A stretch of 63,954 nt of DNA, filler included, from Thraustochytrium aureum (taxonomy: Eukaryota), in assembly GCA_012862495.1 (NCBI GenBank). It is 7 parts of 6 records of this genome, joined end to end, with 100 filler letters (N's around TTAATTAATTAA, not from the genome) between each part and the next. Parts side by side here need not be neighbours in the genome. Positions count along the whole stretch, not along the records: positions 19,339 to 48,809 come from BLSG01000087.1; 6 more parts are not named here. The stretch is one strand, 5' to 3'. The notes under the pieces were generated by a model that worked only from the letters and a program-made list of their open reading frames with translations, did not search any database and had not been told where the DNA came from. This document shows, piece after piece, positions 15,701 to 48,809 of the stretch. Position 1 is the stretch's first letter, and the number at the start of each line of letters is the position of its first letter. The translations under genes and the position numbers were made by a program.

Positions 15701-16225
15701 AAGGGTCGAAAGGTGGCTGTTGCCTTTGCCGAGGGCAAGTGGATTGCGCTCGCACTGGCGAACTACCTCGAGTGCTTCGTCCTATGCCTGCCGATCTTGA
15801 TTCTGACAAGGGAGACCGCCGCAGCAGACAGCGCTGTCAAGGCAAGCTTTGTACTCCTCGTAAACACAGGAACCGTGGCAATCATCTTTGGCCCGAAACT
15901 GTTCATCATGGCGCAAGATCCAGACGGCAACATGTCGGGGGGTGCCAACGGGTGGAGCCAAACGCCTTCGAATCGGGGGAATGGTGAACTTCCGCAACAC
16001 GCGGCAGGGAAGCAAGGCCCTCGCGCGGGGCGGCGCGCTAAAGCGATGCAGCGCGTCGTACCAACGTCAGTTGCGCGCAGTTCCGTAGGAGGCGAGGTCG
16101 CCGCATTGAGTGCAGTGAGCACATTTTGCATCGAGGACAACGATGCAGAAGCAGAGGACCAGTTTGAGTCGAGCAGAGGCCATTTCGATGCCGCAAGCGA
16201 AAGAAGACGCCAGATGGCCTTTTGA
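12764..16225 (+). CDS. PstS-like phosphate-binding domain(s) fused to a class C (7tm_3-like) GPCR; two frameshifts near 14690 and 14850
   Basis: Signal peptide, then PstS motifs AAGATFP, YAALGSGGG, VDFAGSD, VVVRADGSGTT, AIGYS, GAWPIASYTY. A second degenerate PBP domain follows (LLTGQVLFWDDPAI, EYPFV). Seven hydrophobic segments carry class C motifs GYAMVFCPLLLKTWRI, FAEGKWI and IFGPKL. Confidence 0.8.
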
Positions 16226-19223: not shown

Positions 19224-19282
19224 TTTGCTGGCGCAGACNNNNNNNNNNNNNNNNNNNNNNNNNNNNNNNNNNNNNNNNNNNN

Positions 19283-27340: not shown

Positions 27341-28540
27341 ATGGCGCCAGTGCGAGCCGGCGTTCGAGCCGCCCTGAACAGCACACTGTCCACGCGGTGC
27401 TTCGGGATCGAGTACGCCGGGTTTATGAGCAACCATCTCGCGCACGGAGTCGTCGCTCTCGAGGTCTTGAGCAGCGAGAGCCCCAAGACGACCGAGCACG
27501 TCGCCGACAAGTGGGTCGGCCAGTACATCCAGGACACGCTCGAACCTGCAGACAGCGCGCAGCGCGCAGAAGGCGCGCTCGCCCCGATCGGCGAGGGCGA
27601 GGCAGCTGACCTGCTTGGCAAGCGCGAGCGGTTCTATGGCCTTGTAGATTATTACGGCCGCCAAGTTGAACTCACGGGCCTGCAGGCTACGGTCCAAGAG
27701 CACCTCCCGAAACTCTGCGGCGGCGTCGCCGGGTCGGCCTTTCACGGGGCCATACAACTAGGATACGGCGTGTTCGCTGGCGCTGACCGTGTCGCGGTGG
27801 AAGGTCTCGCGTACTTGCACCACTCGCACCTCGCCTTTGCGACCGATGAGGTGCTCGAGGCGGCGGAGGGGCGCGCCCAAGCTTCCGGTTTCGCAGAATT
27901 CAGGAGCTCGTTCCGGTCTGCCCTAGTGGCCGTCGCTAGTGACACAGAGCTCCGCGAGCGGGCGGCCAGCGGGGAGGCGAGCTTTGCGCAGCTAGCGACT
28001 TCCCCGTTCCAGCGGCGCATGCTGGCGCTGGCGCAGAGCCCTTCCCAGCTCGACCGACCATGCAGCTCGGTCTTGCTCGCGCCGCTTGGCTGGTTCGTGG
28101 ACGCAATGCTCGAGGTTTTCCTCGAGACCAGCGACGCAGCAACCTGGGACTTTTTCCTCTTGCACGGTGTGACGTCCGCTTGGGCGCTCGAGCAGGCAAG
28201 TGCGACCCTGAACGAGACGGCGCGGGCCAGGGTCAGCGCAGGCCTGGCCCATGCTGTCGCGGCGACCTACGTCGCGCAGGGCTGTCCCGAGCTGCGGGCC
28301 GCAACGGGCACGGAGGACGAGGTGAGCCTTGCTAGCGAGTCTTGGGAGGCGATATGCAGCCGCGTCGCCAACTCTAGCTCCGACGAGCACGTGTTCAAGC
28401 TCGCCCAGGTCGCCATGCTGCGCAGCCGAGCTGCGGATTCCGCCCTCGAGGATCGGACCTTCAAGCTCGCTGCGGCACGCGCGCTACATGGCAGCATGCG
28501 GTTTGGTCCGCCGCAGCAGCGAGTCAAGCCGGGCGCATAA
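27341..28540 (+). CDS. Questin oxidase-like (DUF4243) family oxidoreductase
   Basis: Conserved His motifs FMSNHLAHG, SAFHGAIQLGYG, DFFLLHGVTSAWAL and DEHVFKL. Confidence 0.75.
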   Translation: MAPVRAGVRAALNSTLSTRCFGIEYAGFMSNHLAHGVVALEVLSSESPKTTEHVADKWVGQYIQDTLEPADSAQRAEGALAPIGEGEAADLLGKRERFYGLVDYYGRQVELTGLQATVQEHLPKLCGGVAGSAFHGAIQLGYGVFAGADRVAVEGLAYLHHSHLAFATDEVLEAAEGRAQASGFAEFRSSFRSALVAVASDTELRERAASGEASFAQLATSPFQRRMLALAQSPSQLDRPCSSVLLAPLGWFVDAMLEVFLETSDAATWDFFLLHGVTSAWALEQASATLNETARARVSAGLAHAVAATYVAQGCPELRAATGTEDEVSLASESWEAICSRVANSSSDEHVFKLAQVAMLRSRAADSALEDRTFKLAAARALHGSMRFGPPQQRVKPGA

Positions 28541-28783: not shown

Positions 28784-30193
28784 CTATGATGCGTTCTTTT
28801 TACGACGCACTGCCGCAACGACACCTTCCACGAGATCCGGTTCGGCATCAAAGAATATTTGGCCGTCCAGCGCGAGGAGCTCAGGTAGCAATTTTGCCTC
28901 ATCCGCGCTTAGCCCTGGTTTTCCAAGGCGTTCTTCAACCTCAGACGCAGACGCCAGAAAGTGGACGATGACGGTGCCTTCAGTCTTTGCCTCACGTTCC
29001 AAGGCTACGCGGGCCTCGTTAATGCAATACTTCGAGTCAAAAAAGTCGACCAGGTTGACGATAATCAGGATGACGTGCGCTTCTTCGAGTGCGCGCTTCA
29101 TCTCTTTCGTAGGGTTGCCGGACACCGGAAGGTTTTTGGCGTCCAAGAACGGCTCAAGGCCTTTATTTTGGAGTATTTCCCGGAAACTGTTTGCGTCGAA
29201 CTTGTTGGAGCCGCGATGCACGATGAACACGTCGTAGTGGCGATTAACAGGAGCAGGACGGGGTGAAACCATGCCGCTCGTGGAATCTCCGCCGTCGTCG
29301 CTTGCACCAGTGGACCCTAGCCCACGTCCGGCTCTCTTCTTCTTACGCACCACATAAACGATTGGGCAAACGAAAACAGCGAGGACAAAGACACTACCGA
29401 CGACAATTCCAGCAATGGCACCAGGACCAATCGACGCTGCGGAGGCGTCGCTCTCGTCCCCGCGCAGTCCTGACGTCTCCGTCGGCGTGCTTGATGGCGC
29501 CCCAGTCGCTTGGTCTGCCGTAGGAGCGGTGCTGGGCGTTTCGGACAAGGCGGCGGTTGGCGAAGTGCTTGGCGAGGATGTTGGGGAGACGCTGGGCCGA
29601 GCGCTCGGTGAATTGGTCGGTTGCCGCGTCGGGCCACTCGTTGGGGCTTTGGTCGGGCCACGAGTCGGGGACTTGGACGGCCCGCGAGTCGGGCCTCTCG
29701 TTGGGGCTTCGGACGGCTCGGGCGTGGGCCGCGGGACCTGAATCGGCCCGCAATCCGTGCAGTCCGTGCCAAGTTTGAGCGGCTGCTGGGTGGGGTATCC
29801 GCTGCTATCGTCACATAGCTGTCCTGCGCCTGGAGGATCTGGGCACCCCAGGGCTCCGCTGTCTTCAACTCGCGTTAAGCCGTGCTCCGAGTATGTATCA
29901 AAGCACAGCTCAACAGTGGCTTCCGTTGCGCTCGGGCAAGTCCCGCACGTCACGGGACACTGGCGCCTAACGCGCACCCCGAAGTTGGAGTTCTCACCGC
30001 AGTATTGCGCGAGCTCCAAGCAGCTGTTGCCACCGCCTTCCCAATCCGGGCAATCGCTGCCAATATGGACAGTCGGCCTGCCGTTGTCACGAATGTGGTC
30101 TTCCCAACCGGGGCACCACTGCCCGACAGCATTCTGCTGCGCGAGCATCAGCGCCATTATCAGCAACAGCAGTTTCGTTCTCATCATCTTCAT
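28784..30193 (-). CDS. Receptor 1: signal peptide - ShK-like + Cys-rich ectodomain (type A) - PST stalk - TM - canonical TIR
   Basis: MKMMRTKLLLLIMALMLAQQNAVG signal; CLELAQYC...RRQCPVTCGTC; GTDCTDCG; PT/PS repeats; TM AIAGIVVGSVFVLAVFVCPIVYVV followed by RKKKR; TIR YDVFIVHRG...PFLD...VILII...FFDSKYCINE. Confidence 0.85.
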   Translation of the reverse strand: MKMMRTKLLLLIMALMLAQQNAVGQWCPGWEDHIRDNGRPTVHIGSDCPDWEGGGNSCLELAQYCGENSNFGVRVRRQCPVTCGTCPSATEATVELCFDTYSEHGLTRVEDSGALGCPDPPGAGQLCDDSSGYPTQQPLKLGTDCTDCGPIQVPRPTPEPSEAPTRGPTRGPSKSPTRGPTKAPTSGPTRQPTNSPSARPSVSPTSSPSTSPTAALSETPSTAPTADQATGAPSSTPTETSGLRGDESDASAASIGPGAIAGIVVGSVFVLAVFVCPIVYVVRKKKRAGRGLGSTGASDDGGDSTSGMVSPRPAPVNRHYDVFIVHRGSNKFDANSFREILQNKGLEPFLDAKNLPVSGNPTKEMKRALEEAHVILIIVNLVDFFDSKYCINEARVALEREAKTEGTVIVHFLASASEVEERLGKPGLSADEAKLLPELLALDGQIFFDAEPDLVEGVVAAVRRKKNAS

Positions 30194-30729: not shown

Positions 30730-32890
30730 GTTTGAAACGCGCTTTGACGCCTCCTATCCCTGCTCCGACTCCCCCAAAACAAAAGACAGCGACGTCACCG
30801 GCAGCAACACTACCAAAGCCAAATGCTGAGGCACCTCCCACGCCGGCAGCGCCAAGGAGTGCTGGAGCGGCGAATCCAATCAAAGCACCAACAAGGATCC
30901 CTCCCGTCAAACGTGGGAACCTGCTCTGCCAGGCGCCTGGCGGCGTGATTGGGATTTTCCCTCGGCCAACGCCGTCGTCGCTATTGACCTTTGAAAGCCA
31001 CGTTTTGAAGGACTCGGTCTCGGCGAGAGCTTTGTGCTCGAGCGCCCACAGTTTCTCGAGCTCTTGCGGGAGGCTGGTGTCGACGGTGGAGGCCAAGCTC
31101 TTGGCTTGGACGCGCCAGGCACCTACCTCGCAGAGGACATGGAGCACCTTCCGTGGAAACTCGCGCTTGGCCGCATCCCCGCTGAAGAGCTTTCGAATTG
31201 TGTCCTTTATCCAACTCTTGAGCTCACTTTCTTGCGCCTTGCCACTCTCGGCTCTGACGTTGCTCAGCACCTCGTCAGCTTCGTCAAACCAAACCGGGAC
31301 CCCTGGGCGCTCAACGTTCGACCTCCACTCGGAGCCCTCCGCAGATACCCGCCAAGCTTTCACGCTTCTCAGGTCTTCAACTTTGTGCTCCTCCTGAGCG
31401 CGTTTCCATACGCACTCCAGAGACTTGCTCGGTGGGGTGAGCGCTGCGAGCGCAACGCTGGCGATGAGTTTGTTCAACATGCGCAACGCCGCGTCGCAGT
31501 TTGCGTCTGATGATTCAGCAGACGTAAAGGTGTTGTCCGGACCCCAATAGCCCCTCTTCGCGGCCAGGTCCTGGATTTCAGCGTCAAGGTCGCTGATGAC
31601 GCTCTCCCAAGCTCTAGCGACTTGGTTCGAGTACTTGCCGCCTTCTGATAGCTCCACGAGTTGGAAAAGCTCCTCCGACTCCGCGCGAAGTGCCTGGAGG
31701 CCCGCAAGCAGGGTGACCTCGCTTGGGCTTTCAACGCGAATGCTCCGCCAACGGTCGTCTGGCGTTTTTGGAAGGGAACCGTCGAGGAGGCCACGAAAGG
31801 TTGTCATTAGGACCGCAAACCGTGCCCGAGCCATACCAAAAACGAGCTCTTTCCAGAAGTCCTTGACACCTGCCAGCTCAGCAGTCTTTGCCGCAATGTC
31901 CTTGTGAGCCGCATTGGCTCTAGCTCGCTCAGCATTTCCGTCATCCCGGAAACCTAAAAATGACCATGGCCCAGGTACGCGCAGTCCCCACGTACCCTCA
32001 GACGGCTGTCTGTTGCCAGTGTAGTCCCTGAGGACGGTGAGCTGGTTGAGGAAGTGTGTCTGCTCGCCGCCCTCGAGGTCTGGGAGGAGAGAGTAGAACT
32101 TACGAATCAGCTCGCAGTTGGCGAGGTCGCAACCCCTGCATTGGCTGTTCAGGGCGTCCACTCCGCGAGTGAAGTAGAGCGACACCTTTCTCGATTCGAA
32201 GTGTTTGGAGAGGTACTCCTTGTTGTAGATTGTCTTTGCGTTGCTACTGACTTTCTCGCGCTCCCTCTGCTCCACTGCATCCATCTTGTTGATGAACACA
32301 GCGACAGACGCCCGCGTGCCAGAGCGGCGCACAAGCTCCGCCAATTCCTCGAACTTTGTTGAACCGACGTCGGTCGTCGGAATCACCATGGCGATCAACG
32401 TGGCCTTCTTCAGTTCTTCGCAAATGACGCCTTCTCGATGCTCGCGGCCATTCGCCTCGTCTGCGCCTGGAAGGTCCACAATCTCGACACCGCCAAGACG
32501 GAGGTCCAGGTAATCCTTCATTGGTTTCATGTTGGCTTCAATTACAAGCCGCGGGATCGTCGTCCTCCTGTTTTGATGTTCAATCCAGCTTCGTGGGCCG
32601 GCAGCAGGATCGACCTGCGTTCCTTGGGTTTCGCTTGGCCCTTGGCTTTCGATTGGCCAAACACGAAGCGTCGGCTCGCCTTCGACATGGCCCCTGAAAT
32701 GTCCAGCCTCCATACTTTCCACGTGCCGCACTAGTGTTACGGTGGCGGTTTCGATCATTGCGGCGCTTGGCAACAGGTACGCTCCGATAATCGCGTTGAG
32801 GATCGTACTCTTGCCGGCGTTCTGTGTGCCCAACGCAGCGATGCGGAGCACGGAGGCGTCCGCGTCGTTGTTGAAATCCAGTCCAACCAT
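30730..32890 (-). CDS. Dynamin-like GTPase of bacterial DLP/mitofusin type with C-terminal Gly-rich hydrophobic segment; 3' end in gap
   Basis: G1 IAALGTQNAGKSTILNAIIG, LLPS..ETAT (G2), IVDLPG (G3) and INKMD (G4), then a helical region and GGILVGALIGFAAPALLGAAGVGG. Confidence 0.8.
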
Positions 32891-33934: not shown

Positions 33935-35450
33935 CCTCGTACGGCATTACATCGCCAACCCGAACGCGGTGATCCTTGTGGTGATCCCGATAACCGACGA
34001 CCTGCAGACGTCGGAGGCGATCCAGCTGGCGCGCGAGTACGACAGGCCGGGCGTGCGCACCCTTGGCGTCCTGACCAAGCCAGACCACGTTTTGGCAGAC
34101 TCGTCGCGCAAGGAGTTCATGGCGAGGGCACTAAAATCGGGCGGGGGCCCGGACACTCCACTCAAGCTCGGATACATCGCTGTTCGCACGCGCAAAGGAG
34201 ACGAGCACGGCCCGCTCTCGCAAGTCCTCGAGGCTGAGCGCACGCTTTTCAGCTCGGACCCTGTCTTCGGCCAGCTGGACAGGTCGCTATGGGGCATTGA
34301 GACGCTGCGATCGCGCGTACTCTCGATCCAATCCAGGTTTCTCCGCGCGTTTCAAAAGGGCTTTGCGTCCTCGGTCCAGGCTCGAAAGGGTGAGCTGGAG
34401 GCAGAGCTTGCTGAGCTAGGAGGTTTGGAGCCCGGGGAGGAGCACGACGTACTACTTGGGTTTTTCCGACGCCTGAACGCCGTCTTTGACAGGGTTACGA
34501 TCAGAAGGGAGAGTGGGAACATGCCGAACGCGGCGCTTCTTGGGATGCACTTCGACGAGGCTGCCTTGGAGTTTGGGCGGAACATCACCGAACGGATTTG
34601 CCCCACGCCAGGGTTTTTCAAGAACGACGAGGCGACGCTTGCAGACGTGCGGGCTCTGATCCAAGACCTTGGCTCCAGTGGCGAGTTGGACAGCCTCGGG
34701 GTGTTCAACAATGTCGTCCGGAGGCACATCGCGGAGCCCGCCAAGCAAGTCGTGGAAGAGTTTGTGAGGCAGGCGAACTTCTTTGTGCAACAAGCGCTAG
34801 GTGCGATTCTCGGAATGGACGACCTCCGCGCGCTGGCCCGCAAGTGCCCGAAGATCTGCTCCAACCTGCTCGAGTCAATCAGGGCCAAGGAAGCCGAGCT
34901 CTGCCAGAGCACGCTCGCGTTTGTGAACGACCTCATCGAGGCTCAAGCAGATTACGCGCGGTTTGGGAGAGACTTGCCCTTGGGTAGCGGCACTGAGATC
35001 GTCGGGCTCATCCAAGGCCTTGGGCTGGATCAGGAGACCCAACTCGTCAGCGCTGTCAGCGCTGTTTGCGGCCAGCCTGGAGCAGTCGTCTTTCGTGCGT
35101 TCATGAACCGCGTTGGGCGCGCTTCACCCGCGAGTTCCCCCATGGGAGACCGCGGGGCCGCGTGGATTTGCCACAAGCTTCAGTGCCGGGCAGAACGTGC
35201 GGTCGCCGCATTCGAAGAAATTATCCCTCGTATAGTCTGGCGCAAGCTCGTCAAAGGGTACGAGGCCGTCTTCGAAGGCCTCCAATCAGATCTCGCCAAA
35301 GACTCTGATCTGCGCAAGCTTTGGACCGAAGAAAGTGGCACTGTTGTCGAGGAACGCAGAGCTCTTGAGGATCGCATTAGTAGGCTGGGTCGTAGCTTGG
35401 AAAAGCTGGAGCAAGTCGAGTTGCGCAGCGCAATGCTCAGCTTGGTTTGA
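33935..35450 (+). CDS. Mx-like dynamin-family GTPase (N-terminal part lost in N gap)
   Basis: ILVVIP...TSEAIQLAREYD...RTLGVLTKPD (G4 with Mx-type TKPD), LKLGYIAVRTR, WGIETLRSR, helical middle domain and GED-like end (EERRALEDRISRL). No PH or proline-rich domain is visible. Confidence 0.8.
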
Positions 35451-35619
35451 GAAAAAAAAGGCTCTTGCCAATGGCGATAAAACTGATTCGTTCGGTCGAC
35501 TCGATGTGGTCGATGCCCTTCCACAGCTCGTTGGTGGGCTACGCTACGTGAGGCGGAAGGCTCGACCTGAACGAGCCGAACGAAGCAGCACTGTCGAACC
35601 TTCTGAAGGCAGCCCAAGC

Positions 35620-36244
35620 CGGCAGTCTAGCTGCGCTACTAAGGCTGCTCGCTGAGAGGACCAGCCCCATGGGGACTGGAACGCTGACTGTGAGGCCACT
35701 CATGGGCGCCTCGATGCCAAATAAGAAATGAAAACTTACCCCGGCCTCAATTAGATCGCCAAGGTTTCTCGCCAAGAACGTCGCCGCCTCCCAACCTGTC
35801 ACATTCTTAGTCAGCCAGTTTGCCGACTCAGTCAACTCCAGCTCACGTAGTCCCTCGCTGGTGGCGCTGAAGGGGGCGAGAAACACAGCCAACGCTCTCG
35901 GCGGAGCGATCGCGCAGTTCTTCCATAGCATTGCGAAACCCGTGGTCCGTAAGCTCCCTTGCCGAAGACAAGAAGACGACAACGCGTTTTGGCCTTTTTG
36001 GAGCGCAACGACTCAAACGCCGAGCCAGCGACCTCAAGCTCGCGCAACCATGTGGTTTTGATGCCCCGCTTGTCAAGCCCTTTGCTGACTTTGTTAACCA
36101 GGCGGGCGTGCTGCTGCGTTGCAAGAAAGACACCCGGCAAACCTCATTGTGCGGGTCTCACAGGCACGTCTGCTCGGCGTTGCAGGTCGCCTCGCTCTGC
36201 AGCTGGGCGCTCGCGCAAAACGCCCTTGCCCCGGCCTCGTCCAT
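35620..36244 (-). pseudogene. Receptor remnant 2: start of type B ectodomain joined directly to a frameshifted VTGWEA TIR-like domain
   Basis: From ATG 36244 reads MDEAGARAFCASAQLQSEATCNAEQTCL*DP (TGA where paralogs have TGG). It continues across frames as FLATQQHARLV, VVVFLSSARELTDHGFRNAMEELR and ANWLTKNVTGWEA. Stalk and TM are absent. The 3' boundary is approximate. Confidence 0.7.
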
Positions 36245-37506
36245 TCTTGCCAGCAAGGCACTTTCCTGGAGGCACCGGCAGCAGGCCTGCCGCGACACCA
36301 AGCAAGACTCGGCTCCGCGTCCTCGCCAGGATCTGCTGGATGCTGGCTGGGGCAGTTCCGTTTGCTGCGCGAGGGTCGATACGTACAGGTTCGCGCCTCA
36401 CGTCCAGCCTCGCGGCTCTTGGAGATGGATCCCTGACCAATTCAATGATCTTGAAAGCTCAGGCTGGTCTTCGAGTGGCGCACGAGCTCGAGCCGCGCCT
36501 TGGCATCCGACTCGGAGTACTTTCGCACCAATGACCAATGCACGTTTGCTCGCACGGCTCTCGGCTCGGCCTTCGGAGTCGGGCGGGCGTGGAGCCGGCT
36601 GTCGCGACAACTCGGCGAGTCCTCCTTGCAGCCCAGCCAACCTGAGCGGGCCATGAGCGCAGGAAGGTCAGCAGCATTTGCGACGAGCGCAGGGTGTGCG
36701 GCCAATTCTTGCGCCGGCGTGAGCATGCGCGTCAAGTCTCCGGTCGAGGCCACGAGGAGGAGGCGGCCCAGTTCATTTCTCGCGTGGAGCCAGAATTCAG
36801 AGGGAAGAGCACCTCCTCGAGTACCCACCGACCGACCTACCGACCTTTGCGTTCAAGTTTGCGTTTGGATCGCTGCGAACGCGTTTCCGTGGAGCACGAG
36901 ATCTCATCGGAGCATCTCTTCAACGCGGAGTGCAACGCCACACGCAGCGCGTCGAGTGGCGCCTCTCGGACCATCATGAGAGCAGTTGCGTTTCGGTTTT
37001 AGCCACTGCTGCTCTGCTGGTCGCTTGCACAACCAAGACTGGTCGGACTGGTGCCACAGCGGTGCCGGCGCTGATCGAGGACGGGCATGGGCTGACCAGT
37101 TCAATGCGCCCCTAGTGAGAGCACGAGTCCCGAATCGAACGCTTCGTGCTGCGCTCGACGAAGGCCGAGAGCTGCTTTTTTTGCACCACGAAAAGGTTGC
37201 GCTCTTGTGCTCTGGCCGTCTTTGTCACCGTTCTCGCGTACGACGGCGTGCAAGGCAATGCCTACTCTACAGTGAGCGGGAATCGGTAACGGCCTTCGTA
37301 GCCGACACACTGATCTGCTTGCTTGCCTTCGAGCCGCTCAAAAGCGCTCTGTGGCGTTTGCTGAAACAATGGATAACCTGGACGAGTTCGCACAGGACGC
37401 CGAGGCGGGCTCCGAGGGCTGCACCGACCGCGGCTGCGGTCAAGCCCGGTACGGGGTCCTTCTCGTAAACGGGCCGTTTCGCCAAGCCAGCAATGATCCG
37501 ATCCAT

Positions 37507-38992
37507 TTACGCCTCATTCGCCCGCTTGTAGACATGATGGATGTGCGGGAACCTCCCAGTTGCAAAGTACGATTCCACGCCGGCCAGGACCAAGCGGTCC
37601 AGGTTGTATACCTTGAAGGGCTCTGCCTCCCAGCCCGTCACGTCCTGGAAAAGCCAGCTCGCCGCGTCGCTGTTCTCGGACTGTTTCAAGTCCTCCTTGA
37701 GCGCGTGCAGCGAGCTCAGAAAAACCGGCAAGACCTTCAACGGCACCACTTGGAAGCTGTCCGCATGGCGGTCGCGCAGCTCGCATAGCGCGGAGCGCAG
37801 CGCTGGGTCATCGACAAGCTCTTGCGAAGAGGAGAGCAACACCACCACAACGCATGCCTTATCGATGCACGACGGTCGGACGGCGCGGCTGGCTTGGTTT
37901 GCGGCGGGAGGCTCGATCACGCAATCGATGCCATTTGCAAGCAAGCCGTCCCGAACCGCTCGAGCCGGGCGAAAGTGATGTTTGTGGCACAGAATGACGA
38001 CCGGGCCGGTTGGCGCGATGGAGAGCTGTCCCAGTGGGCCGTCAAAGTCGCTCTTTGTTTGCCTTGCGCGACGACGACGCGAAAACCAGGCCACAAAACT
38101 TGCCACAAGCAAAAGCAAGCCCACTCCAGTCCCCACTCCAGCGTATACTCCCGCGTCGACTTGCTCCTGGGTGTCTTTTCCTGCAGCCGCAGGTTCGAGG
38201 GCGGATGGGCCCGAGGTTGCAGGCGCGCCGAGCGGTGCTGAAGTTGGACTAGTCTCACTGGCAGAGCTGTTGGTCGGCGCTGGGCTGGGCGGGTAAATGG
38301 GCTTGCGGCTGGGCGCTTGGCNNNNNNNNNNNNNNNNNNNNNNNNNNNNNNNNNNNNNNNNNNNNNNNNNNNNNNNNNNNNNNNNNNNNNNNNNNNNNNN
38401 NNNNNNNNNNNNNNNNNNNNNNNNNNNNNNNNNNNNNNNNNNNNNNNNNNNNNNNNNNNNNNNNNNNNNNNNNNNNNNNNNNNNNNNNNNNNNNNNNNNN
38501 NNNNNNNNNNNNNNNNNNNNNNNNNNNNNNNNNNNNNNNNNNNNNNNNNNNNNNNNNNNNNNNNNNNNNNNNNNNNNNNNNNNNNNNNNNNNNNNNNNNN
38601 NNNNNNNNNNNNNNNNNNNNNNNNNNNNNNNNNNNNNNNNNNNNNNNNNNNNNNNNNNNNNNNNNNNNNNNNNNNNNNNNNNNNNNNNNNNNNNNNNNNN
38701 NNNNNNNNNNNNNNNNNNNNNNNNNNNNNNNNNNNNNNNNNNNNNNNNNNNNNNNNNNNNNNNNNNNNNNNNNNNNNNNNNNNNNNNNNNNNNNNNNNNN
38801 NNNNNNNNNNNNNNNNNNNNNNNNNNNNNNNNNNNNNNNNNNNNNNNNNNNNNNNNNNNNNNNNNNNNNNNNNNNNNNNNNNNNNNNNNNNNNNNNNNNN
38901 NNNNNNNNNNNNNNNNNNNNNNNNNNNNNNNNNNNNNNNNNNNNNNNNNNNNNNNNNNNNNNNNNNNNNNNNNNNNNNNNNNNNNNNNNCAT
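37507..38992 (-). CDS. Receptor 3: (ectodomain in N gap) - PST stalk - TM - VTGWEA TIR-like domain
   Basis: Stalk at 38200-38320; TM VGLLLLVASFVAWF followed by SRRRR; PVVILCH...VVVVLLSS...ALCELR...VLPVFL...WLFQDVTGWEA. The putative ATG is at the gap edge (38992). Confidence 0.7.
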
Positions 38993-39811
38993 GCTGATGG
39001 CTTTGGACCAGAATGGCGACGGGTCGTCGGGCGCGCAAGCGCGATGCAGAGTTCTGTTGCGAGCTTAACGCAACTGAAGCGCTTTCGCGCAGCTCTGCGC
39101 GCGACAGGAAACCAACGAAAACAAAACGCAACAACTGGGGATTAGCAGGTGACCGTTCTTGGCTCTGACGGCCCCGCGAGGGACCGGCGCAACGGTCAGA
39201 GCTATGCTCACCTCCGCAGCGCGGCTTGTCGGCATGCTGCACAGCTCGGGGCTAGGCTGGCCCCTGACTTGGAGCCTGAGTGGGGATTTGCTCGAAGGCT
39301 TGCTTGGGTGGTCGTTGTGGTAGTTGAGAGAAGCGAGCAGTACCTATGTGCCCTTCGCATGACCATGGGACTGGGGAAAGGGGCTGGCCCTGCATGCCTT
39401 GACGGTGTCGGATTTGTCGCACTCCGGATTCAGTCAGGCAAAGCGGATCCGTGCGCCCTCTGGCTACTGCGCACGTGACCGCAACACGGCAAGCTGGCGT
39501 GGAAAGGCGCTGCTCGCTGTTCATGTGCGGGCGCTGAAGCGAAACAGTTCCGATACCTTGCATCCGCTTGCTGGGCGGTCCCACAGACAGGTCTTTTCTG
39601 CGTTGCATTCCATCAGTCCTGAATGCGCCACAGAACGCTGTCGCGCCATGCACGTCCCTCTTCGTTCGCTGCATTGCCACCTGGCGTCAACGCCACTGAC
39701 ATGCCCAACAGCGCTCTCTGTCTGCTAGTCACCTTCGCTGCACATCGCAGTATTGCGATTCGTGCGTTGGACTTCCTTGTATTCAATTGGAGAGGACTTT
39801 CTTTTCTTCCG

Positions 39812-41275
39812 TCATTTGCGTTTGTACACATCCTTCAAGGGCGGAATGCGCTCTGTGGATAAGAATTGTTCCACTCCAATGTAGATGAGCTGGTCTAGGC
39901 CATCCGTCACGTACTGCGCTGCCTCCCATCCCGTCACGTTATTCCAAAGCCAATCCACGGACTCGGCATGCGACGACAAAGTAGACCGGTAGTCGCTCTT
40001 CAAGCCTACAAGCGGCGTCATGTATACCACGAGTACAGTAACACACGAATCACGCTCTCCTTCCGCATGCAGATCTCGTAGCTCGCGGATGGCATCTTGT
40101 AGCTTTGGAGAACTGTCATACTCTCTCGCGGAGGGAAAAATGACGACCGCAAATTCGGCTTCCTGTAAGCGATGCGCAGTCATCTGGTCGTCTGAAGCAG
40201 TCTCGGGATCGACAGGACGCACGGAATCCAAAGGGGCCACAATCTCGCAGGTAAACCGCTTGCCTTTGTCCTGCAAGAAGCGGTCTTGGAGCGCCTTGGC
40301 CAGGGCGCTTTTTCCCCGATGGCAAATAACGACGACTCGCAGGGCATGCTTCGGGCTGGGCAGCCAGCATGCTGCACGAGCAAGNNNNNNNNNNNNNNNN
40401 NNNNNNNNNNNNNNNNNNNNNNNNNNNNNNNNNNNNNNNNNNNNNNNNNNNNNNNNNNNNNNNNNNNNNNNNNNNNNNNNNNNNNNNNNNNNNNNNNNNN
40501 NNNNNNNNNNNNNNNNNNNNNNNNNNNNNNNNNNNNNNNNNNNNNNNNNNNNNNNNNNNNNNNNNNNNNNNNNNNNNNNNNNNNNNNNNNNNNNNNNNNN
40601 NNNNNNNNNNNNNNNNNNNNNNNNNNNNNNNTTGTTGGACGCTGGAATTGGCGATCTTGTCGGCGGTGGGCTCGGAGTTCGGCTTGGGGCAGGACTCGGG
40701 CCTGCGCTAGGGGACTTGCTTGGGCCTGCGCTAGGGGACTTGCTTGGGCCTGGGCTAGGCGATTTGCTCGGGCCTGGGCTAGGTGACTTGCTCGGCCGGC
40801 CTGACGGAGTCTCCGTTGGGGACTTGGTCGGCGGCGTCGGTCGCGGTACGGAGAGTGCAGGGGATCCGCAGTCAGTGCAGTCTGTCCCCAGAGAGCAAGA
40901 GCTTGAACTCGAACCCAGCCTGCCATCATCGCAGAATGGCAAGACGGACGCACATCCAAACGCACCGCCATCCTCGACACGAAAGCAACTATCAAAGCAC
41001 AGGTCAGCAGTAGGGTTTGTCGAGCTCGGGCATGTGCCACACGTGACAGGGCACTGCCGCCGAACGCGTTCGCCCCTGTTGGTTTGCTCACCGCAGTACC
41101 CAGCCAGCCCTGCACACGACACGCGAAAGGCCACAGCGCACGGCACGGCTGGGTCTACGAACGGATTAGGGCTATCCCCAACGTGACCCTCCCATCCGGG
41201 GCACCACTGCGCGGCCGCCGCTAAGCAGGCATGCGCGGCGATCACCGCGGCCAGGCCGGCCTTCCGCTGCCACAT
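39812..41275 (-). CDS. Receptor 4: signal - ShK-like type A ectodomain - stalk - (TM in gap) - VTGWEA TIR-like domain
   Basis: MWQRKAGLAAVIAAHACLAAAA|QWCPGWE; RRQCPVTCGTC; GTDCTDCG; PSKSPS repeats; RVVVICHRG...AVVIFPS...AIRELR...VLVVY...WLWNNVTGWEA. Confidence 0.8.
   Translation of the reverse strand: MWQRKAGLAAVIAAHACLAAAAQWCPGWEGHVGDSPNPFVDPAVPCAVAFRVSCAGLAGYCGEQTNRGERVRRQCPVTCGTCPSSTNPTADLCFDSCFRVEDGGAFGCASVLPFCDDGRLGSSSSSCSLGTDCTDCGSPALSVPRPTPPTKSPTETPSGRPSKSPSPGPSKSPSPGPSKSPSAGPSKSPSAGPSPAPSRTPSPPPTRSPIPASNXXXXXXXXXXXXXXXXXXXXXXXXXXXXXXXXXXXXXXXXXXXXXXXXXXXXXXXXXXXXXXXXXXXXXXXXXXXXXXXXXXXLARAACWLPSPKHALRVVVICHRGKSALAKALQDRFLQDKGKRFTCEIVAPLDSVRPVDPETASDDQMTAHRLQEAEFAVVIFPSAREYDSSPKLQDAIRELRDLHAEGERDSCVTVLVVYMTPLVGLKSDYRSTLSSHAESVDWLWNNVTGWEAAQYVTDGLDQLIYIGVEQFLSTERIPPLKDVYKRK
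40690..40795 (-). repeat. Coding 24-bp tandem repeat (PSKSPS[P/A]G x4) in receptor stalk
   Basis: Repeated gggcctg(c/g)gctagg(g/c/t)ga(c/t)ttgct units. Confidence 0.8.
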
Positions 41276-41924
41276 CCCGATAGTGCTCTGCGTTGCATCA
41301 ACATACAGCGAGCTGGCAAGTGGCGAAGAGTATTGACCGAGCGCGTTGCGCTCTCATGGCCGCACCGCTCTGGATGCCGGGCAGGTCCCGGCAGAGGCGC
41401 AGCAGCAAAACAGCTGCCGAGTTAGCCAGCGGCACGCACGCCAGTATGCGTCGAGGCGGCAAGGCGCCTTGCTCTTCTTTTTTCCCGTTTCTCGCTCTTG
41501 ACCGTGGAGTGCACGGCTCGGGGTTTTGTTTCGTTTCGGGCTTGCCAAGTGCACGATACTCAGCCCTCGCATCGAATCCGAGCTCAAGAGTCGTCGCCTT
41601 GGTGAATTGATGCCCGACTGGCGCGAAACACGGACGGCGCGCTATCGATGGCGGCCGGTTCGGTCGAGGTGTGACCGAGGTTGACCCTGGCTTGAGAGAG
41701 TCCATCCAGTGCCACCACTGACTTCATCCATCATCCCTTCATACTACGCTCTTGGCAGAGGTGACCGACATTGTCAACGTGGTTGATGCACTCCTCGATC
41801 TCTCCGGCAGGCCGAGCGAGCACAGGCGGCTCCAGCAGCTCCAGGACGCTTGAGCGCGCTCGTGTTGCGCAGACCCGAGACGGATTCGGTACTCGCGGAC
41901 CAGCCGCAGCGCGCCGGCAGGTAG

Positions 41925-43463
41925 ATGGCGCTGCGACGGGGCAAGCGGGGGGTGGTGGCAGCTGCGGCGGTGGCCACGCTGCGCTCTGGCTTGGCAGCCG
42001 CGCTGTGGTGCCCCGGATGGGAAGGCTATATTGAAGACGCGCCGTTCGCTACGACAATTGTCATCGATAGGCCTTGTCCAGCATGGCATTACGAATGGCA
42101 GGGGGAACTCGTGACTGCTGCAACGTGCTCAGAGCTCGTTAGTTACTGCAGCGAGCAGACCCCCCTCGGGGAGCGCGTTCGGCGTCAGTGCCCCGTTTCG
42201 TGTGGGTCCTGCCCGAGTGCGACGAGCTCGGTCGCCGACCTTTGCTTTGACACTTGCACAACTCGCGTTGAGGACGACGGCGCAGTGGGCTGCTCCGATG
42301 TCGCGCCGGTAGGGCTATGCGACGATGGTAGGGCGGGCTCGATTTCCACGGCCTGCCCTCGAGGGACCGACTGCTCCGACTGTGGGGTTGCTCTCTCCGT
42401 ACCGCGGCCGACGCCGCCGACCAGCTTTCCCACAGCGCATCCCTCAACCAAAGCACCGACGAAAAGCCCGTCACGTCGGCCGACCAAGTCGCCCTCGAGC
42501 GGCCCGTCACGTCACCCTTCCAAGGCCCCGACAGCAGGCCCGACGCGTCAGCCGAGCAGGTCGCCGAGCAACTCGCCTAGTGCTCACCCGAGCGTTTCAA
42601 CAGGCGGAACTTCCAGCGGAGCTCCAACTCGGGCGCCGAGCGCCGCACCGAGCGCAGCCCCGAGCGCTGCCCCGAGCGCTGCCCCGAGCGCCGCGCTCGC
42701 GTCGGGACAAGCAAGCAGGGATCCAACATCGGCGCCGACGCTTGGCCCGACGGCTTTGCGAATCAGCGAAGACGACCCCTCGGAAAGTCTCGGCGCTGGT
42801 GCGATTGTTGGGATCCTCCTTGGGCTTGCTTTGCTCGCTGCCATCTTTGCTTTTGTGCGGCGGAAGAGATATCCTTCAATTATCGCGGGCGAGAAATCGC
42901 AGCAGACTTCCTATGATGTGTTCATCGTGCACCGCGGTGATAACAAGTTCGACGCCAATATAGTCCGAGAAAAGCTGGAAATGCTCGAACGCCTCAGGCC
43001 ATTCTTGGACGCCAAGAGCCTGAAAGTCGGTGGCGACCCCACAGCGGAAATGCAACGCACCCTTAGCGAAGCACCGGTCATTTTGATCCTGATCAGCCTG
43101 ATCAGCTTTTTCGACTCCAAGTATTGCGTCCAGGAAGCCCGGACAGCCCTGGAACGTGAAGCAGAGGTCAAAGGCACAGTCATCGTTTACTTCTTGGGAA
43201 GTCAGGAAGAAGTCGAGGAGCACCTCAGAAAACCAGACCTCAGCAAGGACGAGCGAGAGTTGCTTCCCAAGCTCTTTGCACTCGATTCACAGAGGCTCTT
43301 CGAGGGTGGCGACGATTCCTATAGCTCTCTTTTGAAGCTCGTCGCTGATGCGGTGAAGCGCAATAAGAAGCAAAGGGCTGTCCCGAGCGAAATGCCCTTG
43401 GCCGCGACGGGCGCCGCGAGCGAACAAGGTCAATCTAGCCCGGTAGCGAGCTCTACAACCTGA
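41925..43463 (+). CDS. Receptor 5: signal - ShK-like type A ectodomain - stalk - TM - canonical TIR (complete, uninterrupted 512-aa ORF)
   Basis: LWCPGWE; RRQCPVSCGSC; GTDCSDCG; PSAA repeats; TM AIVGILLGLALLAAIFAFV followed by RRKR; TIR YDVFIVHRG...PFLD...FFDSKYCVQE. Confidence 0.9.
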   Translation: MALRRGKRGVVAAAAVATLRSGLAAALWCPGWEGYIEDAPFATTIVIDRPCPAWHYEWQGELVTAATCSELVSYCSEQTPLGERVRRQCPVSCGSCPSATSSVADLCFDTCTTRVEDDGAVGCSDVAPVGLCDDGRAGSISTACPRGTDCSDCGVALSVPRPTPPTSFPTAHPSTKAPTKSPSRRPTKSPSSGPSRHPSKAPTAGPTRQPSRSPSNSPSAHPSVSTGGTSSGAPTRAPSAAPSAAPSAAPSAAPSAALASGQASRDPTSAPTLGPTALRISEDDPSESLGAGAIVGILLGLALLAAIFAFVRRKRYPSIIAGEKSQQTSYDVFIVHRGDNKFDANIVREKLEMLERLRPFLDAKSLKVGGDPTAEMQRTLSEAPVILILISLISFFDSKYCVQEARTALEREAEVKGTVIVYFLGSQEEVEEHLRKPDLSKDERELLPKLFALDSQRLFEGGDDSYSSLLKLVADAVKRNKKQRAVPSEMPLAATGAASEQGQSSPVASSTT

Positions 43464-44961
43464 CGCAACTCGATGAAGACTGTTTTCTAGAATGCTGTGC
43501 GCGACCGCCGGGAGACCATGGAACGCGACGAGGCGCAGAGGCAAGAGCGTCAATAAGTCCGCGGCGTGACCAGACTTTTTAAACAGGACCCACGGCGGTT
43601 AAGAAGTGCTCTTGACCATCGGGCTCCTCCCATTCAAAATGCGAGAGCGGGAACCTGGTCAGTGGATAGGCGNNNNNNNNNNNNNNNNNNNNNNNNNNNN
43701 NNNNNNNNNNNNNNNNNNNNNNNNNNNNNNNNNNNNNNNNNNNNNNNNNNNNNNNNNNNNNNNNNNNNNNNNNNNNNNNNNNNNNNNNNNNNNNNNNNNN
43801 NNNNNNNNNNNNNNNNNNNNNNNNNNNNNNNNNNNNNNNNNNNNNNNNNNNNNNNNNNNNNNNTTTCCCTGCTCTGCTCGGCTTGCGAATGCTGTACCCG
43901 AAAGTGCCGGGCGGCGATTCCGCCCTCGAGTCTGCCGGCTGTTGTTCACGAAACTCGGCTGCTTTTGGCATTTTGAACGTCGGCGTACGTGCCGACCTGA
44001 TGCGATGCAAGCGAAACTCGTGGAGCGTCCCTGCTCGCTTGCGTCAAGAGGCTTCACCTAAAGCATCACGCTGACCACCCCTATTTCTCTCCATGCTTGC
44101 TTTTTAAATTGTGCTGTCCGGACAGCGTGCAAGTGCAGGCGAACGTATTCCCTAGCGACGGCTTTGGCGGCTCCCATCCCCACGTAGAGTTCGCATCTGA
44201 GTAGAGTACAACTGGCTGGTCCAACCAGCAGGGTCGTTGAACCAATCGCATGATCATGTTCGCTGGTGATTCTCGCCAGCGCCCCCTTCATTCTTGGCCA
44301 ACACCGCGACGCGAACAACTTGCGACCACGCAGGCACATGCAAGCTCGACTTCGGCGACACACGCCACGGGCAGGGCGGCCGCGACGACAGCATCGAGCT
44401 CGATGCTGCCAGAGGATGGGCATGTGGAGATGAGTGAGATCACAGGATCATCTGGGCATATTTTCCGACAGATCGACACTGTACCGACGCGCACGTCGAG
44501 AAAAAGCGCGCTCGAGCCATTCCTTGCTGTTCACAAGACGAGGTGGGCACCAACTAAACCGAGGTGTGTCGGTCGTTCGTCCGGGTGCATGGCGCGTGCC
44601 AGACGCGTTTGCTGTAGCCAGCAAAGGTAGGTACAACGTCGCCCGCAAGGCTCAACAGGGCCTCATGGATCTGCGCTTCTCGTGGCCCCGCGCGCGCTCA
44701 AGTGTCGCGCTCAAGTCTCATCGCTGGATGACAGAATCGCATCGCATTTTTCAACTGGATCGAGACGCATGCTGGCCGGCCGACGAACGGACTGCGTGCG
44801 GGTGCACGCAGTGCCCACCGGGTGTGGTAGAGCCGAATCTCGCAGAACTCCGTGGGGCAAGGCTCGCCGAGCTTGCGTAGCAGAGTCGAGACTCGCAGCA
44901 CTCCGCGGGCGCAAGGTTCGACCACAGGCGCCAAGCCGGCGTTGCAGACGGTAGACGGGGG

Positions 44962-46353
44962 ATGGATAAGGCCGAGGCCGAAGCGTTCTGCGGCGAGTTT
45001 CTGGGGCAGACCAGCTGCAATGCGGAGCAGACGTGCTTGTGGAATCCCATGGCCGGGAGCTGCATGGTCGCCTTGACGTTCAACTTTTGCCAAGCGATGA
45101 ACGGGGACCCGGTCGACTGCGGCTTTTGGTCGCAATGCGAGTTCAAGACGGTGAACGGCATTCCAAACACTTGCACCGCCGCGCAGCGGCCGGCGGGATG
45201 GAATTGCGAGCAACCTGATTACAACCAAAATCGTTGCCACTGCGGATGCGGGATCTGGGACCCGGATTGCGACAAGTCTCCCCCGGACGACGCGAACGAT
45301 GCGAAAGCCACGTGCGGGCCGTGGGCTTCCCAAATTCCAGAGATCGGCAAGTACTGCGACTACTCGTCAAACACCTGCGCGACTCTGAGCCCAACCGCGT
45401 TACCGACCAGAACGCCAACGAGCCACCCGAAGCAGGGCACCGAGCAAAGCCCCGAGCAAAGCTCCAACACGAACACCGACCGAGGCGCCGAGCACTCGGC
45501 CCAGCGCAACCCCGAGCGCAACCCCGAGCGCATCGCCAAGTGCTATGGTAGCAACCCAAGCACCGAGCCACGCGCCGAGCTTGTCCCCACATCGGCAGCC
45601 GACGGGCAGTGTAACGGGCGGCAGCCCAACGACCCGGGCGCCGTCCGGTTTGCTTCCGACCAGTTCGCCAACGCCCTTCCTTGCTGCTGCAGCCCTCGCT
45701 GACGAAGGCGAGAGTGTCGCAGTCATTGTCGGGGCGACTGCGGCCGGTATTCTTTGCTTGCTTGGCGTTCTCGTCTTTTGGCTGTGCCGCAGGAGATCGT
45801 CAGGGCCAGCTTCCGGCCCTCGGGGGCCGGTCGTCATCCTTTGCCACAGGCAGCACGGCAACATAGCTCGAAATATCCTTGCGGGTCTGTGCGACAAGGG
45901 CTTCGAGTGCGCGATTGAGCCTCCGCTGAAGCCCGAGGATGCCGTCGCCGGCCAGCCTTCCAGCCTGGAGAAAGCCCAGCTCGTTGTCGTTCTCCTCGCA
46001 TCCGTGAAAGAGCTAGACGATGATCCCGCGCTCGCCAACGCCCTTCGCGCGTTGCGCGGTCGTCACGCGGAGGCCAGAGGCCAGGGTCTCGTTGTCTTTC
46101 CAGTGCATTTGAGCTCGCTCGGCGCGATCAAGACCGGCTCTGGAGAGTCTGCATGTTTGGACGTTCTGAACTGGCTTACCCACGAGGTGACCGGGTGGGA
46201 GGCAGAGCCGTACAAGGCAGGCAGCCTGGACCTCCTCGTCATCCATGGCGTGGAATCTTACTTTGCAACAAGCACGATCCCCCAATCAACGCGGCCTTCC
46301 ACCACGTGGAGCCCCCACGCCTCGAGAGCAATCCGCCGAGCGCAAGGCAATGA
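44962..46353 (+). CDS. Receptor 6: type B Cys-rich ectodomain - stalk - TM - VTGWEA TIR-like domain; frameshifts near 45430 and 46283
   Basis: CNAEQTCLWNP, RPAGWNC, CHCGCGIWDPDC; stalk; TM VAVIVGATAAGILCLLGVLVFWL followed by CRRR; PVVILCH...WLTHEVTGWEA. The start and signal peptide are uncertain. Confidence 0.75.
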
Positions 46354-46783
46354 TCATGATGATGGATGATGCGGCTGATGATGAACGGGAAAAGGACGAT
46401 GATTCATTGATGAACGAAAAAGCACTCGGCAAGTCCGCAAACAAGGTGTGTACCCCTCTGCTCACAAATAGGCCCAGGCCTGCCTTGCACACTCTGCCTA
46501 CCAGCCAGCCAGCCAGCCCCACGAAAAACGTGGTGAGAGTAAGCGAACAAGTGCGAGTGGGTACAGGGCGTCAAGTTGAACCGGATGGCGCACCGGCAGG
46601 AGACCGGCAGAGCTGCTGCCCGATCACAAGCTGCGGCCGAGCAGCGAGCAGCTTGATCACTCAACAGCAGACCTGAAACGAAATCAGGAGCGGAAGGCCG
46701 CGAGAGCCCGACGGCGACAGGGCGCTTCATGCACCAACCACGACGCACGAAGCTTTACGAGAACGGACTAGCGTTGCTTGGGG

Positions 46784-48138
46784 ATGGGCTTCGGGTACGA
46801 CGACGCCGTGCTGCTCTGCTCGCCGCTCCAAAGCCAAAGCACTTGTAATGCGGAGGATAGCTGCCTCTGGGATCCGGGCGATGGCACATGTAGAGCGTCC
46901 GACTGGGTGAGGTTTTGCTCCTACGCGAACACGGTGGCCGACCCTGAAACGGAATGCAAGAAAAGCTTTCACTGCCAGTACACGCGAGTCGGTGGCCAAG
47001 ATGGCGTCTGTACCACAGCGCCGCGGCCTGCTGGCTGGGTCTGCGAGGCGCCGGCTTTCTTCAATGGTGGATGCGACTGCGGGTGCGGGGTGCGTGACCC
47101 TGACTGTTTTACTGGCGGGAGTCCATGTATTCATGCGGTCCGTGGGACCGCAATGTCGACGTCGAACTCGTTTGCGACTACGAGACGAACTCATGCGTGT
47201 CGAAAGCTCCAACCCCCGGTCCGTCTAGATCTCCGACCCGCGGACCGTCGTCAAGGCCGACCTCGGTGCCCAGCGCCTCGCCAACAACTACGCCGACGAG
47301 CGCGCCTAGCCACACTCCGAGCAAGACGCCAAGTGAGGCCCCCGCTGGGTCGACGCTGAGCCCGTCTAGTTTGTCGACGATCATGCCCAGCTCGGCGCCG
47401 AGCTTGGAACGCACTTTGGCGCCGAGCTTGGAACCCACTTTGGCGCCGAGTTTGGCTCCTTCTGCTCAGCCCAAGGTCTTTACTGGAGCCCAGGCAGGGG
47501 GGGAGCCAGCGCAGCTGAGTAGCGTTGGACTGGCGGCTTTGGGAGGGCTCGTCGCTTTGTTCGTCGTGGGGGCGCTTGTTGTACTCGGATGGTGGCGCAA
47601 GCGCAAAGGCCCCGTTCCCGTGGCGCACCCCTTGTATTTGATAGAGCCAACAGAGCCAGTCGCGATCCTGGCCACGGCCCAGCATGCGAGACTGGCTCGC
47701 GCAATACAGGGCTCCTTGAGTCAGCGGAGCGTGACGAGTCAGATTGAGCCTTCGAGAGAGAGAGGCGGCGTATCCGCCATCGAGCGCGCACAGCTTGCGC
47801 TGGTACTGTTTTCGTCTGCGCGCGAGCTAGAGGATGAGGGTTTCCGCGCGATGATGCAAGAGCTGCGAGCCCGGGCCGACGATGAGACCTTGCGCATTTT
47901 CCCAGTCTATCTCACTGCGTTCGAGCCGCTCGAAACTGCCGTTCGCGCTTCGGAGCACGCGGAAGCAGCGTCCTGGTTGTTTCGCGGCGTTACTGGGTGG
48001 GAGGCAGATCTCTTCGCGACGCCCAGCCTCAGCGACATGGTGGCCAAAGCCGTGGAGACGTTTTTTGCGTGCGGAGTGATTCCCGACATCAAAGATACCT
48101 ACGTGCTTTTCCACCGGGTTGAAGAAGATCCAGTCTAG
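46784..48138 (+). CDS. Receptor 7: type B Cys-rich ectodomain - stalk - TM - VTGWEA TIR-like domain; frameshift near 47120
   Basis: CNAEDSCLWDP, RPAGWVC, CDCGCGVRDPDC; APSLEPTL repeats; TM LAALGGLVALFVVGALVVLGWW followed by RKRK; PVAILAT...MMQELR...IFPVYL...WLFRGVTGWEA. Confidence 0.78.
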
Positions 48139-48684
48139 TAGAGCTCCAGGGCACCCCCGAGTACTCCGTACCTCGCAGTACAGATCACAGGCTCCCACTC
48201 TCGACGATGTAGCTGTTGACGATCATGATGGGGCCCATGGTCATCATCATCACCGGTGCCTCGTTCTCGCACTGGCAGGCAAACGATTTTGACACTTGAC
48301 TTTCGTTCGCTGTTCGCCGATTCCGCGACCGCCTTGAATGACGACGGCCGGCAGCCGTCGGTCGTGCCAATCGACGGACGCCGTCCGACTCGAACCATCG
48401 TGCCGAAGCGCACCTGAACTCGATTTCGGATCCGCGAGGCTTGGTTCAAGAGTCATGGACAAAGGCACACTCCTGCGCAACTCCAGCGTGCTTTTTTTAN
48501 CCCGCGCCGATGCAAGTACTTGCACCACCATCATGGTACTAGTAGAGTACTCGCATGTTGGCAGCCCGGGCAGAGCACGAACAGCAGCACGAACAGCAGC
48601 ACGAACAGCAGCTCGCGTTTACGAGCCGCGGTTGTGGCGGCACTGAACGGAACATCGCTTTGGGACTTGGCGCTGTTGGCAAGA

Positions 48685-48809
48685 ATGGACGAGGCCGGGG
48701 CAACGGGCGTTTTGCGCGAGCGCCCAGCTGCAGAGCGAGGCCACCTGCAACGCCGAGCAAACGTGCCTCTGGGACCCCGCATGATGAGGTTTGCCGGCTG
48801 TCGGCATGG
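48685..48809 (+). CDS. Receptor 8: 5' fragment of a type B ectodomain gene, cut off by the scaffold end
   Basis: Near-identical (inverted) to 36130-36255. Reads MDEAGAT-AFCASAQLQSEATCNAEQTCLWDP-HDEVCR after removing two homopolymer insertions. Confidence 0.6.

Follow-up and report, generated by a model that had tools for sequence, protein, structure and literature searches.

In a 63,954-nucleotide stretch of DNA from Thraustochytrium aureum (GenBank assembly GCA_012862495.1), referred to here as the window, we describe five copies of a domain with a common VTGWEA motif which, judging from the sequence around them, are likely to be the cytoplasmic tails of single-pass surface receptors built from a cysteine-rich ectodomain, a Pro/Ser/Thr stalk and a membrane helix. 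The VTGWEA domain is predicted to have the TIR fold, and the glutamate on which TIR catalysis depends is likely to be absent from all five copies. Two ordinary receptors with Pfam TIR_2 tails that carry this glutamate lie nearby (41925-43463 and 28784-30193; the neighbours). On balance we favour a model in which the VTGWEA receptors do not cleave NAD+ themselves but signal by assembly with other TIRs, probably the glutamate-bearing receptors of the same cluster.

A VTGWEA domain family with a predicted TIR fold

The VTGWEA copies are real protein domains under purifying selection. A six-frame scan finds the motif exactly five times in the window, on the minus strand from 35802, 37641 and 39937 (copies 1 to 3) and on the plus strand from 46187 and 47989 (copies 4 and 5), which confirms to within about 12 bases all five positions given in an earlier note on this DNA; in 100 order-3 Markov simulations of the window the motif never appeared. 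BLASTP comparisons among copies 2 to 5 establish homology over the whole domain (E 4e-19 to 3e-49). Pairwise identity across all five is 26-51% when the breaks in copy 1 are bridged, the closest pair being copies 2 and 4 (51%), and the five-copy tree is poorly resolved. Aligned end to end, the four intact domains share 24 invariant columns, while across all five copies 16 residues do not vary, six of them being VTGWEA itself. The ratio of nonsynonymous to synonymous divergence (dN/dS) is about 0.24-0.59 in all six pairs of intact domains, a rough estimate with dS near saturation, and at 17 of the 24 invariant residues the codons differ synonymously between copies. A profile built from the five copies detected no further copy in the window.

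The wider motif pattern that had been proposed for the family holds in part. Its SxxE and WLxxxVTGWEA elements are present in five of five copies and ELR in four (copy 4 has ALR), but PV[VA]IL, GVE and the xPVxL of strand βD are each found in three of five and are not universal. SxxC and FLD are missing from the domains, as had been claimed, and a literature search for the VTGWEA motif returned nothing.

The proposal of a TIR-like fold gains support from modelling. AlphaFold2 was run on the four-sequence alignment, and the one domain modelled, that of copy 2, is predicted to contain five strands alternating with helices (predicted local distance difference test, pLDDT, 84; predicted template modelling score, pTM, 0.84). 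In a Foldseek search at E<=0.001, ten of the 11 matches were plant TIRs (the best being L6, RUN1, RPS4 and Roq1, with TM about 0.6), and VIA-align superposed the model on the RUN1 TIR with Z 15.5 and a root-mean-square deviation of 2.8 Å over 145 residues. The first 42 of the VIA-align matches listed were all TIR-domain structures, and the best non-TIR among those listed reached Z 10.3. Plant TIRs such as RUN1, L6 and RPS4 thus represent the closest solved fold (Z 14-15.5, with the long αD region included), although they share only 12-16% identity with the VTGWEA domain. Features from the ESM Atlas also point to TIR clusters (0.94; shared-feature counts <170). SEFIR, a related fold, gave no Pfam match, and the top structural matches among those listed were TIRs.

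The sequence itself is matched by none of the profiles that we tested. None of the four intact domains matched any Pfam STIR-clan family (TIR_2, TIR, SEFIR or another) at E<=5, whereas both neighbours pass TIR_2. The description of the family as unclassified is borne out: no Pfam, NCBIfam or PADLOC family matched at cut-off, and a HMMER search of 1.84 billion representatives gave no true relative, its single match (P0007) being rejected as a low-complexity repeat open reading frame. Of 7994 longer candidates screened for the domain none passed, none of eight pattern matches among metagenome contigs was a true relative, and viral contigs likewise gave none (0/80). The PDB sequence search returned no significant match, BFVD no clear match, and HHalign comparison with TIRs was not significant (probability <1%); the alignment of the neighbours' TIRs, searched against prokaryote genomes, gave 0/35. 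We also assembled 22 reference TIRs, namely the two neighbours and 20 of 37 fetched bacterial loci (16 near-duplicates and one short sequence were dropped). The five-copy profile ranked the two neighbours at the top of this set (8.9 and 6.3 bits, the rest <=3.4), scores that are too weak to indicate descent. Taken together, the TIR-like model and the lack of any profile match point to a TIR fold outside all profiles tested. Highly diverged and uncharacterised clades of eukaryotic TIRs have been described (PMC13142454), and the surveys of eukaryotic TIRs start, by their accounts, from Pfam or UniProt TIR annotation (bioRxiv 10.64898/2026.04.20.719644; PMC13142454), to which a family without a profile match would be invisible.

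Receptor architecture and ectodomain exchange

In copies 2, 4 and 5 a Pro/Ser/Thr stalk leads into a hydrophobic helix predicted to span the membrane, a group of basic residues and then the VTGWEA domain, and basic residues likewise follow the membrane helix in both TIR_2 neighbours. Only the broken copy 1 has neither stalk nor helix. The earlier note had not recognised this layout, nor the two TIR_2 receptors, one of which lies inside the region that it described. Its suggestion of an adaptor role is wrong if adaptor means, as it usually does, a soluble TIR protein, because copies 2, 4 and 5 each have a membrane helix ahead of the domain.

Two kinds of ectodomain are found on these tails, with no similarity detected between them. 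Type A, of about 130 residues, is carried by copy 3 and by both neighbours, whose tails match TIR_2 with E 2e-8 and 6e-10. The three type-A ectodomains are 53-60% identical, with 60% between copy 3 and the receptor at 41925-43463; the stalks that follow contain PT repeats, and type A has a ShK-like match that is weak and below cut-off. Type B, with 16 cysteines, is present on copies 4 and 5, as remnants ahead of copies 1 and 2, and as a further start at 48674-48809. Pfam detected no leucine-rich repeat (LRR) or immunoglobulin (Ig) domain in the ectodomains, and type B is without any match.

A search of metagenome contigs with the type-A ectodomain gave 0/597. Among 37 matches in the protein search, P0008 alone, a metagenomic protein from another organism, covers the ectodomain in full, and the partial matches are unrelated Cys-rich proteins. 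P0008 has a type-A ectodomain (43-46% identical), stalk and membrane helix in common with copy 3, but its tail matches neither VTGWEA nor TIR_2 and represents a third kind. For residues 250-400 of P0008, which match no Pfam family, the ESM Atlas score is 0.91 but few features are shared, a weak hint that this tail may be a third divergent TIR. A single ectodomain type is therefore found with three tails, a catalytic-type TIR, a TIR-like domain that probably lacks the glutamate and, in another organism, a third kind, from which it follows that ectodomains and tails have been exchanged.

This arrangement can be compared with the Toll-like receptors (TLRs) of animals and choanoflagellates, the IL-1 receptors (IL-1Rs) and SIGIRR, which have the same type I layout of ectodomain, membrane helix and cytoplasmic TIR. 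The ectodomains of TLRs and IL-1Rs are, however, LRR or Ig, whereas this cluster has a small Cys-rich module, some 130 residues long and borne on a PT stalk; the predicted fold is nearer to the plant TIRs (RUN1, Z 15.5) than to the TIR of TLR15 (Z 10.4), and no MyD88-type partner is known for the VTGWEA receptors. One survey describes LRR-TM-TIR (TM, transmembrane) proteins only from choanozoans and Ig-TM-TIR proteins only from animals (PMC6040629). Another parallel, by its description, is cogent1101_i1 of the haptophyte Gephyrocapsa huxleyi, a membrane TIR protein with an extracellular region and an intracellular TIR from another unicellular eukaryote, which is linked by expression to virus resistance but keeps the glutamate (PMC12489294). 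Our literature search found no labyrinthulomycete TIR receptor and no antiviral system of protists combining TIR, dynamin and giant virus, nor anything relevant on TIR proteins with ShK and transmembrane segments, for which the one match was a mussel transcriptome. The logic of the cluster would be Toll-like, in a likely protist and with an ectodomain that is neither LRR nor Ig.

From the TIR family and two dynamin-family genes next to the cluster we infer an immune role. It could be argued that these are non-immune surface receptors, for adhesion or for recognition of a substrate or another cell, in which the TIR fold is a generic docking site: surface proteins of protists commonly have mucin-like stalks and small modules rich in cysteine, the partial ectodomain matches are to unrelated Cys-rich proteins, and no ligand is known. 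We give this a very small probability, considering that the cluster includes two TIR receptors of catalytic type as well as two dynamin-family genes, and that published work connects TIR proteins of protists with defence against bacteria and viruses (bioRxiv 10.64898/2026.04.20.719644; PMC12489294).

The catalytic position and a possible assembly role

Catalytic TIRs are defined by a glutamate on helix αC, as described in bioRxiv 10.64898/2026.04.20.719644. It is present in all 22 reference TIRs, 10-14 residues past the serine column that follows βC. When the βC-αC block was slid without gaps over the five copies, two adjacent registers scored best (-1.7 and +1.9, all others <=-86), and in both of these the catalytic column is occupied by Ser, Asp, Asn, Ala or Met, with Glu in none of the five copies. 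A MAFFT alignment is free of gaps from βC to αC in three of the four intact copies and sets Ser73 of copy 2 opposite the neighbour's glutamate; in a mixed profile the glutamate of Roq1 falls in the same column, a result that is partly circular. Position within the helix gives a similar picture, the catalytic glutamate of the neighbour TIR model being residue 6 of a 15-residue αC, while residue 6 of the 16-residue αC in the copy 2 model is Ala74 and the glutamate of ELR (Glu77) is residue 9. On this combination of alignment and modelled helix position, the catalytic glutamate is likely to be absent from all five VTGWEA domains. AxxELR was considered as an ordinary catalytic motif and rejected; its glutamate is at residue 9 of αC and is replaced by Ala in copy 4. 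The earlier suggestion of a distinct enzymatic product becomes less likely than no catalysis at all, because the catalytic position holds no glutamate in any copy.

The most conserved part of the family lies elsewhere. In the copy 2 model VTGWEA forms the DE loop and strand βE, which have the highest pair identity of any element (0.79), whereas the lowest pair identity is that of the BB loop (0.15), which is variable in length; its Asp column contains Glu in three of the four intact copies. Plant TIRs often have a Gly-aromatic pair at this DE loop/βE position, so the motif, which the earlier note had found unfamiliar, may not be as foreign as it seems. In the TIR assemblies described in PMC8635717, both scaffold and enzyme, βE is part of an EE surface that packs on the BB loop of the next subunit to form the BE interface.

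The VTGWEA domains recall the sensor TIRs of plants. RRS1 is described as lacking the glutamate and the BB-loop motif, with variable BB loops among such sensors and a gene arranged head-to-head with that of its executor RPS4, and activity of the pair needs the executor's glutamate (PMC13725568; PMC13732033). They resemble RRS1 in their apparently missing glutamate and variable BB loop, and one copy of the five, copy 3, also resembles the RRS1/RPS4 pair in standing head-to-head with a glutamate-bearing partner, the receptor at 41925-43463. Unlike RRS1 and RPS4, which are cytosolic NLRs with NB-ARC and LRR, the VTGWEA proteins have the layout of single-pass membrane receptors and show neither domain by Pfam. 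Most TLR and IL-1R TIRs are likewise reported to lack the catalytic glutamate and to act as scaffolds (bioRxiv 10.64898/2026.04.20.719644). The family belongs to none of the Pfam TIR/TIR_2, TLR/IL-1R or NLR families and most resembles a scaffold or sensor TIR receptor.

We tentatively propose the following sequence of events. The Cys-rich ectodomain on its stalk, an architecture read directly from the genes, would bind a ligand, upon which the receptors may cluster in the membrane. Their tails could then stack head-to-tail through the conserved DE-loop/βE surface, where the position of VTGWEA is predicted and its use as an interface is suggested by known TIR assemblies. By analogy with RRS1 and RPS4, such an assembly might license or restrain a catalytic TIR partner. 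Catalytic and putatively non-catalytic receptors with a common ectodomain adjoin one another here, which offers a testable system for sensor/executor TIR pairing outside plants and at membranes. A more specific version is conceivable, in which glutamate-less TIRs with interchangeable ectodomains activate a catalytic partner at the cell surface, and the VTGWEA strand fills out, in trans, the active site of that partner, to which it might contribute an acid and so alter the product; we consider this elaboration quite improbable.

Several observations weigh against the assembly model. Four of the five copies show frame breaks or N-terminal parts that cannot be read, the type-B copies have no clear signal peptide, and all of the evidence comes from one locus in one organism. 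The head-to-head arrangement and common ectodomain that link a VTGWEA receptor to a catalytic one are confined to copy 3, the other four copies carrying a different ectodomain. The register of αC depends on sequence alignment and on the DSSP strings of two models from shallow alignments, and one non-significant HHalign alignment placed the canonical glutamate on Glu77 of ELR by means of a three-residue gap. Finally, the glutamates of SxxE (Glu64) and GWEA (Glu128) are invariant in all five copies, which could mean a catalytic role.

These last points are also the case for an atypical enzyme, which would process NAD+ or another nucleotide through a relocated acid: Glu77, one turn further down αC, Glu64, or Glu128 reaching into the pocket of the next subunit. 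Glu77 is present in four of five copies, an acid occupies the BB-loop Asp position in three of the four intact ones, His-Arg or His-Lys follows βA in three of five, and in structure the domain is nearest to enzymatic plant TIRs. We nevertheless regard such an enzyme as unlikely. Glu77 is Ala in copy 4, lies 16-17 residues past the post-βC serine column as against the 10-14 of all reference TIRs, and is residue 9 of αC rather than residue 6. The BB loop varies more among the copies than any other element, whereas NADase activity is said to depend crucially on its Asp and Gly (PMC13732033), and the glutamate-bearing neighbour fits the same plant TIRs equally well, so that likeness to plant TIRs does not show catalysis. 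Were the VTGWEA domain active without the canonical glutamate, it would represent a new TIR chemistry.

SIGIRR has an inhibitory role, and a pure decoy or inhibitor of this kind would bind ligand, or anti-TIR proteins of a pathogen, and damp the catalytic neighbours while passing on no signal itself. The missing glutamate is consistent with such a role, as is the ectodomain that copy 3 has in common with two catalytic receptors, which could allow it to compete for the same ligand. SIGIRR, with no glutamate at the position in the alignment, is also the top sequence match of the TIR at 41925-43463, at only E 0.002. The different, type-B ectodomain of four of the five copies suggests independent sensing over competition, and we assign the decoy a low probability, preferring assembly with a catalytic partner.

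Layout of the cluster and its surroundings

The window consists of separate contig pieces joined by linkers of the form N44-TTAATTAATTAA-N44 at 19239, 48810, 55129, 59120, 60474 and 62828, so that gene neighbourhood across a linker is not real. The VTGWEA cluster occupies the last part of piece 19339-48809. Copy 1 (minus strand) has its TIR-fold domain at 35539-36140, split over three reading frames and joined directly to the start of a type-B ectodomain at 36125-36244, which contains an in-frame stop where other copies have Trp; the end of the ectodomain, the stalk and the helix are missing. Copy 2 (minus) is readable from the stalk end through the membrane helix (38092-38148) and basic residues to the domain (37507-38319 overall), which is intact at 37510-38010 and is the one modelled. 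Its type-B remnant is at 39536-39619, the remainder being unreadable in a single frame, and a run of N occupies 38322-38989 of the upstream region. The copy 3 receptor (39812-41275, minus) comprises a signal-like N-terminus, the type-A ectodomain (40835-41209), a stalk and the domain (39815-40354), with no visible break in the readable part; we place its membrane helix inside the N run at 40385-40631, between stalk and domain.

On the plus strand, the ordinary TIR receptor at 41925-43463 has a type-A ectodomain, PT stalk, membrane helix (42801-42857) and a TIR_2 domain with the catalytic glutamate; its start codon is 650 bases from that of copy 3. It is followed by copy 4 (44962-46369), with a type-B ectodomain at 44962-45381 (16 Cys), a single frame change in the stalk near 45430, a membrane helix at 45722-45778 and the domain from 45818, and by copy 5 (46778-48138), whose type-B ectodomain (16 Cys) contains a single frame change near 47120 and precedes a stalk, a membrane helix (47530-47586) and the domain (from 47644). 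A further type-B ectodomain start (48674-48809, plus; copy 6) breaks off where the contig piece ends and is 92% identical in DNA to the ectodomain of copy 1. Copies 1 to 3 thus run leftward, and the TIR_2 receptor and copies 4 to 6 rightward. Together with the common ectodomain of copy 3 and the TIR_2 receptor, the closeness of the domains of copies 2 and 4 and the match between copies 1 and 6, these orientations suggest that the cluster arose by an old inverted duplication.

Given its stop, two frameshifts and lack of stalk and helix, copy 1 is likely a pseudogene. The frame changes in copies 4 and 5 occur at short base runs, and two similar changes are found in an unrelated gene on another piece (12656-16225, plus; between about 14650 and 14860), in which a phosphate-binding-protein (PBP) domain (PBP_like_2) is fused to a class C seven-transmembrane (7TM) region; assembly error is therefore a plausible source of the breaks in copies 4 and 5. 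It is scarcely probable that the VTGWEA genes as a whole are decaying duplicates without present function. Decay would account for the stop, frameshifts and large deletion of copy 1, the unreadable ectodomain of copy 2 and the frame changes of copies 4 and 5, but it sits poorly with the four intact domains, the dN/dS estimates (rough as they are) and synonymous differences given above, and the sign from the PBP/7TM gene that some breaks may be assembly errors.

To the left of copy 1, the two dynamin-family genes, which are divergently oriented, stand between the VTGWEA cluster and the second TIR_2 receptor. One (33936-35450, plus; Dynamin_M with a weak GED) is tail-to-tail with copy 1 and has its N-terminal part in an N run; the other, a Dynamin-like GTPase (30731-32890, minus), has two C-terminal hydrophobic segments. 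Mx-like dynamins have antiviral roles. The second TIR_2 receptor (28784-30193, minus) has a type-A ectodomain, PT stalk, helix at 29351-29407 and catalytic glutamate. Fusion of this receptor with the dynamin-like gene across an N run was considered, the two being in the same frame, and rejected since the receptor has a signal-like start of its own.

The genes of the window are eukaryotic in type (myosin, WD40, P-type ATPase, kinase and class C 7TM), its GC content is about 0.6, and stop-free genes of 500-800 codons indicate an intron-poor organism. An exact-sequence look-up of ten window proteins found 0/10 on record. Two long open reading frames, at 7536-9143 (minus) and 24955-26223 (plus), have coding-like codon bias and no Pfam match, and a Questin oxidase-like gene (27341-28540, plus; PF14027, E 2e-32) adjoins the second TIR_2 receptor.

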